Origin: a virus
Reading direction: 5' to 3' (one strand)
Length of the DNA: 37,920 bases
Virus genome (UHGV): UHGV-0126763
This document shows, piece after piece, positions 5,077 to 37,920 of this stretch (position 1 is the first letter of the stretch; every line of letters starts with the position of its first letter). The notes under the pieces are model-generated. The model ran no database searches, was not told the origin of the DNA, and saw only the letters and a program-made list of their open reading frames with translations. A program made the translations under genes and the position numbers.

Positions 5077-5763
5077 TCAAACTTTTGGCAGATCGTCCTG
5101 GTCTACGTACCTGGTGTGTTTCACAATAGCTGAAACAAAATGCATTTTATCAACTTCTTCAACAGGAAGAGTGATTGGGCGGTGATCACTGTTTATGCTA
5201 CTAAACTGATAATCACCGTCTCTTGTTTTGTTCATGATCTTTATCATGTTGTGACCGTCTTTGGTCCTTACAAAGACTTCATCACCTGGATGTACTGGCG
5301 TATTTGGTTCAATAACAACATATTCTCCTGACTGAATCCTTGGCCACATGCTGTCACCCTTAACCTTCAGACCGTAAGCATCTTTATCGCCGCTGTAGAT
5401 GCTTAACCAACCGGATCTGAATTCAATCATATCCACTGAGCCATCAACTCCCAAAACGGCTTCACCAATTACCGGAACAAAACCCGCACGAACGTTACCC
5501 GCAAACTCAAGATGGTCCGTAGCTCCAGCTTTACCATCTGCAAGCATGTCCATCCATCCGCGTGGGAGATTAAAAGATTTTTCAATTAGTTCCATCATAT
5601 CGTCAGCAATGCGTTTTTTTCCGCTTTTTCCTTCCGGATACAGCATTCTGGAAACGTATGATGGTTCCCTTTCTATTCGACGAGCCAACTCTGAGGCCTT
5701 TCCATTACAGAATCGGTCTCTTATCTCTATCAGCCTTAGTCGTCTTTGTTCGTATTTATCCAT
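5077..5763 (-). CDS. cI: CI-like prophage repressor (HTH N-terminal domain, S24 LexA-like peptidase C-terminal domain)
   Basis: 228 aa; C-terminal GDSMWP serine motif and later Lys typical of S24 autoproteases; divergent from cro-like gene across the operator cluster; no SD before ATG, consistent with a leaderless PRM-type transcript. Confidence 0.85.
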   Translation of the reverse strand: MDKYEQRRLRLIEIRDRFCNGKASELARRIEREPSYVSRMLYPEGKSGKKRIADDMMELIEKSFNLPRGWMDMLADGKAGATDHLEFAGNVRAGFVPVIGEAVLGVDGSVDMIEFRSGWLSIYSGDKDAYGLKVKGDSMWPRIQSGEYVVIEPNTPVHPGDEVFVRTKDGHNMIKIMNKTRDGDYQFSSINSDHRPITLPVEEVDKMHFVSAIVKHTRYVDQDDLPKV

Positions 5764-5769
5764 GATTTA

Positions 5770-5797
5770 ATTCTATCTTTGATTACCTGCCGGTAAA
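5770..5797 (-). promoter_or_regulatory. Candidate PRM-like promoter for the repressor
   Basis: Minus strand TAGAAT -10 about 6 nt upstream of the cI ATG, weak TTTACC -35 overlapping the leftmost OR site; inferred by analogy to lambda PRM. Confidence 0.35.
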
Positions 5798-5835
5798 TAA
5801 CCTATGGGTATTGATTTGCTTTTTACCTACAGGTA
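5784..5835. promoter_or_regulatory. OR operator cluster (three sites)
   Basis: TACCTGCCGGTA 5784-5795, weaker AACCTATGGGTA 5799-5810, TACCTACAGGTA 5824-5835; tripartite arrangement between divergent cI and cro. Confidence 0.65.
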
Positions 5836-5839
5836 AACT
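5811..5839 (+). promoter_or_regulatory. Candidate PR promoter
   Basis: TTGATT -35 at 5811-5816, 17-nt spacer, TAAACT -10 at 5834-5839 overlapping the rightmost operator; 32 nt upstream of cro start. Confidence 0.45.
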
Positions 5840-5871
5840 CATCTTATTCAACAACGGGAAGGAGATAGCAA

Positions 5872-6102
5872 ATGGAAGAACTCCGCTTGTATCTGAACTC
5901 CCTTTCACTGGAAGAGCAGAGAGAATTTGCCACCAAGTGCGGAACTTCTATCGGCTATTTGAGGAAAGCACTTAGCCGTAATCATGAATTGGGCGCAGCA
6001 CTTTGTGTTCTGATTGAGAAGTTCAGCAATGGTGAAGTGACTCGCAAAGACCTTCATCCGGTTGATTGGGAAAGCATCTGGCCTGAATTAATGGCCGCTT
6101 AA
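5872..6102 (+). CDS. cro: Cro-like HTH regulator
   Basis: 76 aa, first gene rightward of OR, GGAG RBS 7 nt upstream. Confidence 0.65.
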   Translation: MEELRLYLNSLSLEEQREFATKCGTSIGYLRKALSRNHELGAALCVLIEKFSNGEVTRKDLHPVDWESIWPELMAA

Positions 6103-6110
6103 GTTATTAA

Positions 6111-6142
6111 CGCTCTTACACATCCCAGCCCTGAAAAAGGGC
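6111..6142 (+). promoter_or_regulatory. nutR: nutR (boxA CGCTCTTA plus boxB GCCCTGAAAAAGGGC)
   Basis: CGCTCTTA at 6111-6118 and hairpin GCCCTGAAAAAGGGC at 6128-6142, between cro and cII. Confidence 0.8.
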
Positions 6143-6218
6143 ATTACCAGAAACAAATCTCTATGGTTTTGCGTTTCTTTGCGAAGCCAACTCTATCTAA
6201 TCATTAAGGAAATTATCT

Positions 6219-6500
6219 ATGGGTACTATTGCAACTAAAAGCAAGAAAGCGGCTCGCATCGAGTCAGCCTTGCTGAACAAACTGGCACTGATGGGGCAGA
6301 AGACATTCGCTCGAGCAATGGGGGTTCCTGAATATCAGGTAAGCCGATGGAAGAATGGTTTCTTCTCGCAGGTAAGCATGATGCTGGCTGTTCTGGAATA
6401 CGGAATCGAAGACGATGAAATGGCTGAGCTGACTAAGCGGCTTGCCAATTACCTGACAAAAGAAAAAGCCCCGAAGAACGGCGAATTCTTCGAGGCCTGA
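6219..6500 (+). CDS. cII: CII-like transcriptional activator
   Basis: 93 aa; ARIESALLNK...SRWK...MLAVLE segment resembles lambda CII as recalled; AGGA RBS. Confidence 0.8.
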   Translation: MGTIATKSKKAARIESALLNKLALMGQKTFARAMGVPEYQVSRWKNGFFSQVSMMLAVLEYGIEDDEMAELTKRLANYLTKEKAPKNGEFFEA

Positions 6501-6534
6501 TGTAGAAAGACTGGATCAATCCACAGGAGTCATT

Positions 6535-6696
6535 ATGACAAAACGTCGTAAGAAATACCAGGAAAAAGAAGAGATTCGACACCCTGATTCACCTGAGGGA
6601 TTAGTGGTAGCCGCAGCAAATAACAGGGCGTTCGCAGAGCGCCTTGTTGGTGTTTACAGACTAGCCAAAGCAGGAGTGAAACATGGGCGTCGTTAA
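6535..6696 (+). CDS. Small basic hypothetical protein (53 aa), not in ORF track
   Basis: ATG at 6535 preceded by AGGAGT; hand translation [53 protein letters not shown]; stop overlaps the O-like gene start. Confidence 0.35.
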   Translation: MTKRRKKYQEKEEIRHPDSPEGLVVAAANNRAFAERLVGVYRLAKAGVKHGRR

Positions 6697-7504
6697 GTTA
6701 GCTGATTACAGGCCTCAACTGGAGGTCGTGGAGCATCGCGTGGCAGATACCGAAGATGGTTTCATGCGCGTTGCTAACGAGATTACCGACAGTCTGCTGA
6801 TGGCTGATTTAACCGTCCGGCAGTTGAAGGTGATGCTCGCTATCATGCGCAAGACATACGGATTCAATAAGCCGATGGATCGACTCACAAACACGCAGAT
6901 AGCAGCCATGACAGGTATTCATCACACTCATGTTTGCGCTGCCAAGCGCCAGCTTATTGAGCGTAAATTCCTCATTGCTGATGGCGTGAAAATCGGAGTG
7001 AACAAGGTGGTTTCGCAGTGGATTAGCCAGGACAGCTTAACATTAGCTAAAACAGCTAATAAAACATTAGCCAAGTCAGCTAATGGGTATAAGCCAAGTC
7101 AGCTAAACACAAAAGACAATATACAAAAGACAATAAATACAAATACCCCCTTACCCCCTAACGGGGGCGGCGATGGGCAGGTTAAACCTGAACGTCGCAA
7201 GGCAGAACGAATCGACTACGAATCCTTCCTGAACGCCTACAACACCGAAGTCGGTGACAGACTTCCACATGCTGTTGCGGTCAACGAGAAACGCAAACGT
7301 CGCCTGAAGAAAATCATTCCGCAACTGAAAACGCCAAACGTGGACGGTTTCAGAGCGTATGTCAGGGCGTTTGTGCATCAGGCCAAGCCGTTTTACTTCG
7401 GAGACAACGACACGGGCTGGACGGCAGATTTTGATTACCTGCTGAGGGAAGACTCGTTAACGGGAGTTCGGGAAGGGAAGTTTGCAGACAGGGGGATTGC
7501 ATGA
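6683..7504 (+). CDS. Replication initiator, O-like (P22 gene 18-like)
   Basis: 273 aa, AGGAG RBS, origin-like iterons embedded mid-gene, followed by helicase gene with ATGA overlap. Confidence 0.8.
7040..7140. repeat. Candidate replication origin: iterons plus AT-rich tract inside the O-like gene
   Basis: GCCAAGTCAGCTAA occurs twice (7070-7083, 7092-7105) with related TTAGCTAAAA/CAGCTAAT units, then A-rich tract with AAAAGACAATA twice. Confidence 0.5.
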
Positions 7505-8877
7505 GACAGGATATCGAAGCGAGCGTTATCGGTGGCCTGCTGATTGGTGGATTAACACCAACCGCCAGCGACGTTCTGGCAACGCTTGAGCCGGAAGCGT
7601 TTTCAATTCCGCTCTACCGGAAAGCCTTCGAGGTTATCCGCAAGCAGGCGCGAAACAGAAACCTAATCGACGCGCTGATGGTTGCCGAGGAGTGCGGAGA
7701 GGAGCATTTCACGTCAATCCTGATGACCAGCAAAAACTGCCCGAGTGCCGCAAACCTGAAGGGATATGCCGGAATGGTCGCGGATAACTATCACCGCCGT
7801 CTGGTGCTGGAAATCATGGATGAAATGCGTGAACCAATTCAGAGCGGAACCATCGACGCATCGAGTCAGGCGATGGATGAACTTGTAAAACGTCTCTCAG
7901 CTATCAGAAAGCCCCGTGACGAGGTTAAACCTGTACGGTTAGGGGAAATCATCACTGACTACACTGACACGCTTGACAGGCGTCTGAGGAACGGAGAAGA
8001 GTCAGATACCCTGAAGACCGGAATCGAAGAACTTGACGCCATCACCGGAGGGATGAACGCAGAAGACCTGGTGATTATCGCCGCTCGTCCTGGTATGGGG
8101 AAAACCGAGCTGGCGCTGAAGATTGCCGAAGGCGTTGCAAGCCGCGCTATTCCTGGTTCTGACGTCCGGCGCGGAGTGTTGATTTTCTCGATGGAAATGA
8201 GCGCATTGCAGATTGCAGAGCGAAGCATTGCCAACGCCGGGAGGATGTCGGTTAGCGTGCTGCGAAATCCTGCATCGATGGATGACGAAGGCTGGGCGCG
8301 TGTTGCTAACGGCATGAGTCAGCTTGCAGATTTGGATGTATGGGTAGTCGATGCCTCGCGGTTATCGGTCGAAGAAATACGCTCAATCGCAGAACGGCAC
8401 AAACAGGAAAATCCAAACCTGTCACTCATCATGGCGGATTATCTTGGCCTGATTGAGAAGCCGAAAGCAGACCGCAACGACCTCGCAATTGCTCACATCT
8501 CCGGAAGCCTGAAGGCGATGGCGAAAGACCTGAAAACGCCTGTTATCTCCCTGAGTCAGCTTTCGCGCGATGTTGAGAAGCGACCAAACAAACGCCCGAC
8601 AAACGCAGATTTGCGTGATTCAGGAAGCATTGAACAGGACGCAGACTCAATCATCATGCTCTATCGGGAAGCGGTATATGATGAGAACAGTAGCGCCGCG
8701 CCATTTGCTGAAATCATCGTGACGAAAAACCGTTTTGGCTCGCTTGGTACAGTTTACCAGCGGTTCTGTAACGGACACTTTGTTGCATGTGACCAGGATG
8801 AAGCCAGACAGATTTGCACAACATCAAATGCACCTGCTGCGCGTGGCAGACGATATGCACAAGGGGCTGACGTATGA
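7501..8877 (+). CDS. Replicative DNA helicase, DnaB family (P22 gene 12-like)
   Basis: 458 aa; Walker A GMGKTE; DnaB-like N-terminal [14 protein letters not shown]. Confidence 0.9.
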
Positions 8878-8902: not shown

Positions 8903-8934
8903 AGGCCTGCTGGTAATCGCAGGCCTTTTTATTT
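8903..8934 (+). terminator. Intrinsic terminator after replication genes (tR2-like position)
   Basis: AGGCCTGC-tggtaatc-GCAGGCCT stem-loop followed by TTTTTATTT. Confidence 0.6.
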
Positions 8935-8950
8935 GGGGGAGAGGGAAGTC

Positions 8951-9391
8951 ATGAAAAAACTAACCTTTGAAATTCGATCTCCAGCACATCAGCAAAACGC
9001 TATCCACGCAGTACAGCAAATCCTTCCAGACCCAACCAAACCAATCGTAGTAACCATTCAGGAACGCAACCGCAGCTTAGACCAAAACAGGAAGCTATGG
9101 GCCTGCTTAGGTGACGTCTCTCGTCAGGTTGAATGGCATGGTCGCTGGCTGGATGCAGAAAGCTGGAAGTGTGTGTTTACCGCAGCATTAAAGCAGCAGG
9201 ACGTTGTTCCTAACCTTGCCGGGAATGGTTTTGTGGTAATAGGCCAGTCAACCAGCAGGATGCGTGTAAGCGAATTTGCGGAGTTATTAGAGCTTATACA
9301 GGCATTCGGTACAGAGCGTGGCGTTAAGTGGTCAGACGAAGCGCGACTGGCTCTGGAGTGGAAAGCGCGATGGGGAGACCGGGCAGCATGA
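8951..9391 (+). CDS. ninB: NinB recombination protein
   Basis: Start chosen at [10 protein letters not shown] (ATG 8951, GGGAGAGGGAAG RBS) giving 146 aa, matching lambda NinB length and sequence as recalled; ORF-track start 8933 is upstream in frame. Confidence 0.8.
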
Positions 9392-9704: not shown

Positions 9705-10081
9705 CAATGGATTATTCACAGTTAAGTGATTTTGAAATTAACTTAAAAGTCGCGCATATCGTGCTAGGAAAAAACAATTACGACTGGGATCCAGAAAAGA
9801 AAGAAGTTTACTTGGCTGGAATTGATGGTGGTGAGTTTTTGCCTTGCGGATATTTTGACCCATGTAATATGGCCGCTGACGCATATCCGATCATCACTGA
9901 AAACAAAATTAGCACCATGTGGATGACAGCGGAAAAAGAATGGTGCGCATGGTCAGGAGGTGATTTAGAGGAAGGTTGTTGGGAATGGGAAAATATTCCT
10001 GGCTACTACTTCTGCGGCGAATCGCCTCTCCGCGCCGCCATGATTGTCTTTCTCATGATGCAGGACGCCAATAATGCTTAG
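9701..10081 (+). CDS. Hypothetical nin-region protein (NinX-like?)
   Basis: Start at MTMDYSQ (ATG 9701, GAGGAA RBS, ATGA overlap with NinE-like stop); ORF-track start 9665 is in frame upstream. Confidence 0.55.
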
Positions 10082-35156: not shown

Positions 35157-36200
35157 TTACCCTGTAAATATGCTAAGGAATGTTTTTTGAAATGATTTGT
35201 TTTTATTTTTAGCGTTAATTAATGCTACTATACTAACTTGCAGTTTTACCATTATTGTAGCAAGTGTGTAAGTAAGTACATAACTTATTAAATAATGACT
35301 ACCTATTTTTTGACACATTATGATAAATGGGATGTGCCATAAATAAATCCAAATGGAGTTTTGGGATATGAATGAAACAACCTGCCATAATCTTAAAACC
35401 TTAAGTAAAAGAACAGCTTTGTTTGAGAGCAGATAGACTACGAATATCATAAAGGTTGCATAGGACATGTAATATATCCCAGGTGGGTACTTGTCTGACT
35501 GAGTTGGATTAAAGGCACCCAAGGTAATAATGTAATATGCAGTCATGGCAGAAAATAATAATCCACAGATAATGGTTGGGGGTAATAATTCTTTATGATC
35601 AGTGCTTGCAATTTTATAACCAATGATGAAAGCAAGTGTATAAGATATAGAGTTTGATATGTATGTCCCCAAAAGTATATAAATGCTCAACTTGTCAATT
35701 CCATTATACAATGGAATTAACTGGCTATTAATTAATAAAAATGACGCGGATATTGTTAATATCGCTTTTAAATTAAGTGTGTATAGTTTTGGAGGAATGA
35801 AAGTGGCTATCACTGATATTATGAAAAAGAGTCTAATAACCCACACATAACCAAGCCCACTGGATAATGCGAATGATGTTATTATAATTGACTTATTGTA
35901 AGTAAAGTCTTTTATATTAAAAATAAACGAAATGATTTCATTTATTAAGAAAAATGCCGCGAAGAAAATCCAAGTTGGTAAAACTAAACGGCGAAATCGA
36001 GAATTAATATATTTTATTCTGTTGCTATGGCGATGTTCGGTTACACAAAAGGACATCCCCATAACCATAAACATTAAAGGAACATCAAAGTTTCGCAGTT
36101 GAGCTAGCCATAAAGGAGGCTGGACATGGGCTAGAATGATTAGAGAAAGCCCGAGAAATCTTAAAAAATCTATTTTATCAATACGCATGACTTCGTCCAT
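35157..36200 (-). CDS. Acyltransferase family 3 integral membrane protein (putative O-antigen acetyltransferase)
   Basis: 347 aa, about 10 predicted TM segments, N-terminal IDFLRFLGLSLIILAHV motif typical of acyltransferase-3 (OafA/Oac-like); strongly AT-rich; sits between tail fiber genes and integrase. Confidence 0.8.
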   Translation of the reverse strand: MDEVMRIDKIDFLRFLGLSLIILAHVQPPLWLAQLRNFDVPLMFMVMGMSFCVTEHRHSNRIKYINSRFRRLVLPTWIFFAAFFLINEIISFIFNIKDFTYNKSIIITSFALSSGLGYVWVIRLFFIISVIATFIPPKLYTLNLKAILTISASFLLINSQLIPLYNGIDKLSIYILLGTYISNSISYTLAFIIGYKIASTDHKELLPPTIICGLLFSAMTAYYIITLGAFNPTQSDKYPPGIYYMSYATFMIFVVYLLSNKAVLLLKVLRLWQVVSFISQNSIWIYLWHIPFIIMCQKIGSHYLISYVLTYTLATIMVKLQVSIVALINAKNKNKSFQKTFLSIFTG

Positions 36201-36676: not shown

Positions 36677-37834
36677 TCATGTGACGTTACCGTCTATCCA
36701 GTCCGCCCACCATTGCATCATTTCTCTGCGCTTATCGAGATACTGAGCATGATTGTAAATTCCACGCACAGATCCGCCGTTGGCATGTGCCAGTTGCACT
36801 TCAATGGCGTCGGCAGGCCATTCGTGCTCGTTCATAATCGTGCTGAATTCATGCCTGAATCCGTGACCGCTTTCCAGACCTTCATAGCCGATTTGTTTGA
36901 TCACAAGCAATACCGCGTTCTCGCAGATTGGCTTCTTCTTATCGTTGCGCCCGGCAAAAACAAACTCTGAGACTGGTTTAGTGATGGAGCTTAGCGTAGT
37001 GAGAAGCTCAACCACCTGGTCTGACATAGGAACAACATGAATTTTGCGTCCCTTCATCACATTGGCGTCGATGGTGATAATCCTGTTTTCAAAATCGACG
37101 TTCTTCCATAGCATGGAACGAAGCTCTTTTGTTCTGAGGGCTGTGTAGCGTAAAACTTTGGTCGCAATGAGCGATACGATACTTCCTGAAAATGTTGCAA
37201 GTGCTTTGTTGAATTCCGGGATCTGGTCTGCAGGAAGAAACGGGAAGTTCTTCTTGCGGTATCCCTTCATGGCGTCAGCAAGGTCAGGTGACGGGTTATA
37301 TTTAGCCCTTCCGGTGACAATAGCGTAACGGAAAACCTCGCCGCATCTTCTGCGTGCTTTGTTGGCTCGCTCCATTGCGCCGCGATCTTCAAATCTGCGG
37401 ATTACTTCCAGCAGTTTCATCGGCTCAATATCCTGAATTTCAAGGCCGCCGATGATAGGTAAAATGTCGTCATCAAACATCTTTGCAAGTTCATTTGCAT
37501 AGCCTACTGACCAGACTTGCTTCTTGTGCTCGTACCATTCCTTGTAAATGGCGCTAAAGGAATTGTTGTTAGACGAAGCCTTTTTCGCCTTTACCGGATC
37601 GATGCCAACCGAGATGTCTTTCCTCGCAGTCCATGCTTTATCCCTTGCCTCCTGCAAAGTCATAAGCGGATATTTTCCTACGGTCAGTATTTTTTCCTTA
37701 CCGTCAATCTTGTAGCGAAGCTGCCATACCTTTTTCCCGGATACAGGGACATAAAGGTACAGGCCATTACCATCGAGAAGGCGATATGGTTTTTCTTTCG
37801 GCTTTGCTGCTTCAATCTGCTTAACGGTGAGCAT
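36677..37834 (-). CDS. int: Tyrosine integrase (P4-like family)
   Basis: N-terminus MLTVKQIEAAKPKEKPYRLLDGNGLYLYV typical of this family; C-terminal catalytic region with RHEFST and HANGGSVRGIY; ORF-track start 37870 is an upstream GTG. Confidence 0.85.
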   Translation of the reverse strand: MLTVKQIEAAKPKEKPYRLLDGNGLYLYVPVSGKKVWQLRYKIDGKEKILTVGKYPLMTLQEARDKAWTARKDISVGIDPVKAKKASSNNNSFSAIYKEWYEHKKQVWSVGYANELAKMFDDDILPIIGGLEIQDIEPMKLLEVIRRFEDRGAMERANKARRRCGEVFRYAIVTGRAKYNPSPDLADAMKGYRKKNFPFLPADQIPEFNKALATFSGSIVSLIATKVLRYTALRTKELRSMLWKNVDFENRIITIDANVMKGRKIHVVPMSDQVVELLTTLSSITKPVSEFVFAGRNDKKKPICENAVLLVIKQIGYEGLESGHGFRHEFSTIMNEHEWPADAIEVQLAHANGGSVRGIYNHAQYLDKRREMMQWWADWIDGNVT

Positions 37835-37920
37835 GGGTAAAAATCCGGTGGGTAAAATTATTTTATCCACTTTTTACCCGTCATGGAGTGCGGCTGTCAA
37901 CGATCTGACGCGAACCATGA

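Follow-up and report, generated by a model that had tools for sequence, protein, structure and literature searches.

Lambdoid phages carry their replication origin as a set of iterons and an AT-rich tract in the middle of the initiator gene O (PMC7466680, PMC3349717), an anatomy that has been described for ori-lambda (PMC3349717). The genome UHGV-0126763, a mosaic lambdoid phage of 37,920 bp (hereafter the window, meaning the whole stretch of DNA analysed), contains an O-like gene with repeats and A-rich DNA at its centre, which raises the question of whether this is where the phage starts its replication. We infer from the sequence that it is: with a probability of roughly 0.9, the array and the tract form the bidirectional (theta) origin of the phage, of the ori-lambda type, within the stretch of its own initiator gene that encodes the linker.

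The window as a whole resembles a complete temperate phage, with RecT, a Q antiterminator, structural genes, a low-GC acyltransferase gene and an integrase. Its early region is ~97% identical to phages Gally, 611R6, Kapi1 and HK140, and its late region is ~92% identical to Citrobacter phage Omnitron. The O-like gene occupies the place in a rightward early operon that is expected of a gene holding a lambdoid origin, in the order S24 repressor, Cro-like, CII, O, DnaB-type helicase and NinB, with the following parts.

5077-5763, minus strand: S24 CI-type repressor, early module.
5872-6102: Cro-like ORF, early module.
6219-6500: CII, early module.
6535-6696: small gp53-like ORF, early module.
6683-7504, plus strand: O-like replication initiator gene, an ORF of 273 aa, from Pfam, PHROG and megablast.
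6737-7021, plus strand: N-terminal Phage_rep_O domain (aa 19-113), presumed to be the iteron-binding winged-helix domain, from Pfam and the AlphaFold secondary structure.
6911-6955, plus strand: segment aa 77-91, a predicted turn and recognition helix; its class tracks the iteron class, and the helix at 81-93 comes from AlphaFold.
7169-7501, plus strand: C-terminal domain of O (aa about 163-273), an exchangeable module found joined to other N-domain/iteron sets.
7501-8877, plus strand: DnaB-type replicative helicase of the P22 gp12 / HK97 gp55 type (Pfam DnaB_C, E=8e-78; DnaB N-terminal domain, E=2e-13; PHROG 19).
8933-9391: NinB, early module, after the helicase.

The identity of the initiator is clear from its matches, with aa 19-113 matching Pfam Phage_rep_O (E=5.8e-33) and the whole protein matching PHROG 345, 'replication initiation O-like' (E=3e-105). 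The peptide quoted in the original prediction agrees with the translation of the 6683-7504 ORF, the stop codon of which overlaps the start codon of the helicase gene (ATGA). By megablast, the gene was 99.0% identical in nucleotides over its whole length to gene O (gp54) of HK97, and 98.7-98.9% identical to ST104 gene 18, Nil2 o and the O genes of Stx phages 2851 and 1717 and of many Salmonella P22-like phages. This allele is carried by 715 of 5,426 complete E. coli genomes (~13%) and is also present in several Stx-converting phages.

In the middle of the gene, a repeat finder resolved four copies of the 18-bp sequence ATTAGCCAAGTCAGCTAA, with 83-100% identity to the reference copy, which consensus and dyad searches also recovered, followed by an A-rich tract and a C5/G5 element.

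7022-7039: iteron 1, ATTAGCCAGGACAGCTTA, the most degenerate copy.
7042-7059: iteron 2, ATTAGCTAAAACAGCTAA.
7066-7083: iteron 3, ATTAGCCAAGTCAGCTAA, the reference copy.
7089-7106: iteron 4, ATAAGCCAAGTCAGCTAA, abutting the AT tract.
7104-7143: A-rich/AT-rich tract directly after iteron 4, presumed from its composition to be the DNA-unwinding element.
7146-7167: C5-TTA-C5-TAAC-G5 element, with a possible hairpin of 5-bp stem at 7154-7167 in the ssDNA fold.

Every iteron is a dyad, TTAGCY-N5-AGCTWA, and the copies follow one another at start-to-start distances of 20, 24 and 23 bp, giving the at least four dyad iterons of ~18-19 bp, about two helical turns apart, that characterize a lambdoid origin. 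The array spans nt 340-424 of the gene, starting at codon 114 (nt 7022) just after the Phage_rep_O domain, and sits, again as in lambdoid origins, inside an O-family gene between the N-domain and the exchangeable C-domain, which begins at about nt 7169. Such an array is far beyond chance: on both strands of the 37,920 bp, the consensus with up to three mismatches had four matches (0.09 expected) and the dyad pattern TWAGCYNNNNCAGCTWA had four (0.01 expected), in each case the four iterons themselves, and 0 of 100 shuffles reached four matches. The repeats that the original prediction had placed inside the O-like gene are thus present, with GCCAAGTCAGCTAA occurring twice (7070-7083 and 7093-7106) and TTAGCTAA at 7043-7050, but they are copies of one 18-bp dyad-symmetric iteron rather than two kinds of unit, and they number four rather than two or three. 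Its span of 7040-7140 took in iterons 2-4 and missed both iteron 1 and the C5/G5 element. At base 7078 in iteron 3, the window has A where HK97 and most relatives have G, a synonymous difference, and G at this position would give iteron 3 a perfect TTAGCC/GGCTAA dyad. A terminator-like match at 7085..7065 on the minus strand was discounted, since it consists of the iteron 3 dyad and the T-run of the spacer after it.

The composition of the DNA directly after iteron 4 points in the same direction. The 40-mer at 7104-7143 has a GC content of 20%, against 50% for the window, and only 0.4% of window 40-mers have a GC content as low; with 27 A and 5 T on the plus strand, it is the most AT-rich, strand-asymmetric tract of the replication module and the easiest-melting DNA of the neighbourhood, and it is unstructured in the ssDNA fold. 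Inside it, the 14-mer ACAAAAGACAATA(T/A) is repeated in tandem at 7109-7136, and within this unit lies the duplicated AAAAGACAATA that the original prediction had described in an A-rich tract, at 7112-7122 and 7126-7136. A strand-asymmetric AT-rich tract right after the last iteron is a further feature of lambdoid origins, and the window has the ACACAAAAGACA motif in common with lambda; a ACACAAAAGACA-type A-rich tract after the last iteron was found in lambda, in P22 and in all the other relatives examined. The arms of the neighbouring C5/G5 element are also expected from Pro-Pro and Gly-Gly codons. This element stands where lambda has an inverted repeat on the right-hand side of its AT tract, and it may or may not contribute to the function of the origin: its 5-bp stem was not significant against shuffles (p about 0.25), the best stem of the region reached p<0.05 in only 24% of the variants when 38 distinct relatives were compared with shuffles, and two close variants break the stem.

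An array of this kind might instead be an O-binding site with a mainly regulatory role, in titration or handcuffing, in replication inhibition and incompatibility or as a transcription roadblock, with initiation taking place elsewhere. In lambda, plasmid-borne ITN3-4, combined with oop, inhibit the replication of lambda-type replicons without any need for the AT tract (PMC3349717), and the window also has an oop-like box and a terminator just upstream of the array: the conserved oop/pO 33-mer is found at 6510-6542 with 1 mismatch, and a promoter/terminator scan of 5700-7700 placed a terminator-like hairpin at 6498..6466 on the minus strand. The same scan found no promoter-like site inside O, and Rfam, run on the whole window, gave no family above threshold, the oop-like RNA having no match to a curated model. 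We regard this explanation as very unlikely, because neither strand of the 37.9-kb window holds a further iteron copy outside the array to serve as the real origin, because the array abuts an AT-rich tract as it does in the experimentally defined lambda origin (PMC7466680), and because a regulatory role would be compatible with origin function and no replacement for it.

The layout of the presumed origin recurs in relatives of the gene. We compared the O genes of lambda, P22, BTP1, SEN34, E. coli 4A7 and the Yersinia, Cronobacter, Klebsiella, Erwinia and Providencia phages, searching each de novo for its best family of 17-mer repeats, and in lambda this search returned precisely the annotated set of four in NC_001416 (39034-39118). 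Four copies spaced at 20/24/23 were present in lambda, P22, BTP1, the Yersinia and Providencia phages and the window, and in these six groups the array starts at nt 340-365 of the gene; the frame pattern of the copies is 0/2/2/1 in both the window and lambda, and the arrays of P22, BTP1, Yersinia and Providencia cycle through the same phases. Five iterons were found in Cronobacter phiES15, Klebsiella RCIP0034 and E. coli 4A7. Despite the common layout, the iteron sequences are entirely different between groups. The likeness to the lambda origin within gene O, as originally proposed, therefore extends to four dyad iterons, their spacing, their position in the gene and the ACACAAAAGACA-type tract.

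Several relatives are hybrids with respect to the window gene. In a distant BLAST search, Stx2a phages shared query positions 445-822 alone (window 7127-7504), at 96.6%, and in Stx2_EH0787 the N-domain ahead of the window-type C-half is a divergent Phage_rep_O member that brings its own CCGCACATGA(A/T)G repeats and a short AT tract. Pfam thus places a Stx2a N-domain among the distant members of Phage_rep_O (E=6e-15), as a divergent allele and not a different family. BTP1 combines the N-domain and iterons of P22 with a window-type C-half, and in the Klebsiella phages and SEN34 the match to the window at the DNA level is limited to 7038-7142. The partner of the C-domain is a DnaB-type helicase in the window, P22 and the Yersinia, Erwinia and Providencia phages, and of the lambda-P type in lambda, 4A7 and SEN34. 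The hybrid genes indicate that the N-domain with its cognate iterons and the C-domain with its helicase partner are separate modules, and the joints between them lie within or beside the AT tract and the C5/G5 element.

An alternative reading is that the AT tract and the C5/G5 element are conserved chiefly because they offer a homology 'linker' for the exchange of O alleles, and not as an unwinding element. P22 gene 18 is identical to the window over ~57 bp (AAACACAAAAGACAATATACAAAAGACAATAAATACAAATACCCCCTTACCCCCTAA), comprising the AT tract and the C5 element, despite its other iteron class and diverged N-domain, and the hybrids of BTP1 and the Stx2a phages are joined in the AT/C5-G5 stretch. 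However, the A-rich character and the position of the tract are retained where its sequence differs, as in lambda, Cronobacter and Yersinia, suggesting a compositional or functional constraint, and a role as a junction is the expected by-product of a conserved functional core. We therefore consider the homology explanation highly improbable and the presumed unwinding element the better account of the tract.

Given that the iteron sequences differ between groups, we asked how they relate to the proteins encoded beside them. A scan of IMG/VR with an O alignment yielded 80 more loci, at 54-100% protein identity. Across 94 loci (32 distinct classes), a given class of aa 77-91 goes with a given iteron consensus, a co-variation confounded by tight linkage, the iterons lying within 70-200 bp of the co-varying segment, and all copies within one array carry one half-site. 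The pairs observed are as follows.

Segment TGIHHTH(V/I)C...: iteron TTAGCY-N5-RGCTAA.
Segment TGMAPTKCS or TKIDSTKCS: iteron TTTACCGA(A/T)(A/T)CGGTAAA, i.e. TTTACCGAwwCGGTAAA.
Segment TGILPHKCS: iteron TTACCCGAATCAGGTAA.
Segment I(Q/G)KH(H/L)THCS: iteron TTAGCGGAAGTTGCTAA.
Segment TKLPVKRCN of lambda: iteron ATCCCTCAAAACGAGGGA.

Linkage alone would account for the co-inheritance of neighbours, but not for one half-site throughout each array. The pairing, like the half-site conservation described next, is indirect evidence that the cognate N-domain of O may bind the iterons specifically.

The conservation of the iterons within one class was then compared with that of the surrounding gene. Among 11 diverged genes of the IHHTH class, the mean pairwise identity was 92% for the iteron half-sites and 88% for their third codon positions, compared with 70% for the central 5 bp of the iterons, 67% for the linkers between them and 49% for third codon positions in the N-domain. 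Over 51 unique sequences, 54% of third positions were invariant in the array, compared with 3% in the N-domain. The conservation of the half-sites and of their third positions indicates that the repeats are conserved and under constraint at the DNA level. Repeat conservation in related initiators had been set beforehand as the check that could refute the origin reading, and the relatives do retain arrays at this place in the gene, with half-sites conserved well above the synonymous background.

The frames of the iterons agree with this constraint. The pattern 0/2/2/1 spreads the four copies over three reading-frame phases, which indicates that the repeat is a DNA-level and not a peptide-level one; together with a pLDDT below 50 for the origin-encoded aa 109-176, it fits the low-complexity linker of the original prediction. 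That the repeats are merely such a linker, of the LAKxAN type and generated by slippage, with no cis-acting role for the DNA, is scarcely credible, for although aa 109-176 are predicted to be disordered and iterons 2 and 3 share a frame, encoding LAKTAN and LAKSAN, iterons 1 and 4 lie in other frames and encode unrelated peptides, the half-site third positions far exceed those of the N-domain in conservation, and the dyad symmetry, the lambda spacing and the concerted switch of the copies are left unexplained at the peptide level.

To see where the co-varying residues may lie in the protein, we used an AlphaFold model run on a 20-sequence alignment, from which, given a mean pLDDT of 48, the order of secondary structure alone was taken. 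Confidence was moderate at aa about 41-110 (pLDDT 65-76), and the order in the model was helix 45-58, helix 70-77, helix 81-93, strand 97-100 and strand 103-106. This H-H-H-E-E order is that expected of a winged helix-turn-helix, in which the co-varying residues would fall where the third helix begins, and sub-threshold matches to HTH_Crp_2 and HTH_23 were found at aa 66-98. A search of solved structures by sequence profile gave no meaningful PDB relative of the O family. Since the model is of low confidence overall, we assign helix 81-93 as the recognition helix only tentatively.

Taking these observations together, we propose how the origin may work. On derepression, transcription would run rightward from the cro-side promoter through cro, cII, O and the helicase gene and read through the origin, a step that takes its gene order from the window and the role of transcription from lambda. 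Dimers of the O-like protein would then occupy the four dyad iterons (7022-7106) through their N-terminal winged-helix domain, in which the helix around aa 81-93 would read the TTAGCY half-sites, as the co-variation of segment and iteron suggests; in the Stx phages 933W and P27, the four AT-proximal iterons are those bound efficiently, and in lambda-type origins the AT tract is dispensable for binding and required for unwinding (PMC7466680). By analogy with lambda, four sites about two helical turns apart could give an O-some-like wrapped complex. This complex would destabilize the adjoining A-rich tract, a step suggested by its composition. Finally, the C-terminal domain of O, presumed to be the recruiter, would bring in the DnaB-type helicase that the phage itself encodes, in place of a loader of the lambda-P type acting on host DnaB, as the pairing of the two genes and P22 genes 18 and 12 suggest. 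The latter are reportedly the P22 replication genes of Backhaus and Petri (1984). The peptide encoded across the origin would be a passenger linker, its sequence dictated by the DNA signals.

The significance of these results lies mainly in annotation, in that the locus can be labelled with a probable origin and a replicon-specificity type (HK97/ST104/Nil2, half-site TTAGCY). The element is of a known kind and a known allele, of the HK97/ST104/Nil2 type, and is unannotated in the GenBank records checked, those of HK97, Nil2 and ST104, none of the three having an origin annotation at the O gene; the literature searched, with the HK97 genome paper outside the search, yielded no description or experimental test of these TTAGCY iterons. 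The principle of specificity between initiator and origin has been established since the work on lambda, phi80, 82 and P22. The pairing table illustrates the co-evolution of initiator and origin and the exchange of modules at the AT tract, and it could help to predict which co-resident prophages share replication specificity.

A recent preprint proposes that P2 OLD senses palindromic iterons at the melted ori-lambda (10.64898/2026.07.10.737580). By extension, the pairs of N-domain and iteron specificity on a constant scaffold might be driven by host defence that senses the palindromic iterons of a melted origin, as opposed to the view that the specificity pairs stay separate solely because this prevents cross-talk among prophages in the same host. 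We hold the defence-driven view to be very unlikely; the pairing itself was observed across the 94 loci. If it were true, the code HHTH/TTAGC, T/H-K-C/TTACC and VKRC/TCCCTC would predict both replicon compatibility and defence sensitivity among enterobacterial prophages.

Among known systems, the iteron plasmids show both likenesses to the window and differences from it. The origins of pSC101, R6K, RK2, P1 and F likewise place tandem initiator repeats beside an AT-rich unwinding element and use a winged-helix initiator. However, plasmid iterons are found outside the rep gene, as a rule accompanied by DnaA boxes, whereas those of the window lie inside the initiator ORF without a nearby DnaA box: DnaA boxes (TTWTNCACA) had one match in the window, at 9712, a number below chance, with none near the array or in the replication module. 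The initiator belongs to Phage_rep_O and not to a plasmid Rep family, and a plasmid origin of the Rep/iteron/DnaA-box type was rejected on these grounds. The Stx phages 933W and P27 resemble the window in having an iteron array and an AT tract in the middle of O, but their iterons are lambda-like and six in number and their partner is of the lambda P type, in contrast to the four iterons of other specificity in the window (PMC7466680).

Ori-lambda itself shares with the window the mid-gene position in an O-family gene, where the origin separates the parts coding for the N- and C-terminal domains (gene nt 349-433 in lambda, 340-424 in the window), four 18-bp dyad iterons at 20/24/23 bp with the same frame pattern and a ACACAAAAGACA-type A-rich tract directly after the last iteron. 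By contrast, the iteron sequences are unrelated (ATCCCTCAAAACGAGGGA in lambda, TTAGCY-N5-RGCTAA in the window), the O proteins are 29% identical, the C-domain of lambda is different and paired with lambda P instead of a phage DnaB-type helicase, and an EcoRI-centred inverted repeat lies to the right of the AT tract in place of the C5/G5 element. P22, the gene 18 of which has four ~20-bp repeats, with phage L having its own set (PMC8022706), has the same gene order as the window, including the ORF48/gp53-like small ORF, a DnaB-type helicase partner, four iterons at 20/24/23, the identical AT tract and C5 element and a C-terminal domain of related type. Its gene 18 protein is 50% identical to the window O overall, the differences including TTTACCGAATCGGTAAA-type iterons, unlike the TTAGCY type of the window, and a different recognition segment, TGMAPTKCSTAKNEL. 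HK97 gp54, ST104 gene 18 and Nil2 o are the same allele at 98.7-99.0% nucleotide identity, and they share all four iterons, the AT tract and the C5/G5 element with the window.

The interval upstream of the O-like initiator gene O contains two features:

6466-6542: oop-like antisense RNA unit
6535-6696: small ORF of 53 aa, of the HK97 gp53 / P22 ORF48 type, PHROG 1331 (unknown function)

On the − strand, the oop-like unit carries a terminator-like hairpin of 14 pairs with a T-run (6498..6466), which overlaps the end of cII, and the unit as a whole (6466-6542) gave no Rfam match. The small ORF lies between cII and O, begins at 6535 within the oop/pO box, a conserved 33-mer matched at 6510-6542 with one mismatch, and overlaps the O start with its 3′ end; it is kept in HK97, Nil2, ST104, and Yersinia and Erwinia phages. 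At the other end of O, the helicase start codon overlaps the O stop codon (ATGA, 7501-7504), which suggests that initiator and helicase are translationally coupled.

A further gene lies close to the integrase:

35157-36200 (−): Acyl_transf_3 family acyltransferase gene
36677-37870 (−): tyrosine integrase region

Having a GC content of 32% and flanked by a tail-fibre assembly gene and the tyrosine integrase, the acyltransferase gene looks like horizontally acquired cargo, with a predicted role possibly in surface polysaccharide modification.

Among the related phage loci compared with O, variant forms were found in the following:

L006 928-1875: hybrid O gene of Stx2a phage Stx2_EH0787
L010 1430-1550, L007 1458-1569 and L011 1499-1610: five-iteron arrays, as against four

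The hybrid O combines a divergent Phage_rep_O N-domain without the RKTYG motif and about six repeats of CCGCACATGA(A/T)G type (L006 ~1355-1480), coding for an AHE/AHD-rich peptide. Beyond the repeats come a short AT tract and a C6/G5 element, and after these the window-type C-terminal half (96.6% identity). In two database entries (P0006 and P0007, 446-474 aa), the same O protein carries an extra domain, PF16532, and these may be read-through, mis-called ORFs, or real fusions.

Within iteron 3, the window has A at 7078, giving AGCTAA; the same base is G (GGCTAA) in HK97 and most of ~35 near-identical relatives, among which the A recurs in L025 and L046 alone. A G at this position produces the perfect dyad TTAGCC/GGCTAA, and the exchange is synonymous (TCA/TCG, both Ser).

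Iteron number also differs between relatives: Cronobacter phiES15 has five iterons, with the additional copy at a 36-bp step. In Klebsiella RCIP0034 and E. coli 4A7, the additional iteron lies upstream and the spacing is 29/19/24/23. In the five-iteron relatives, the three AT-proximal spacings are constant at about 24/23.
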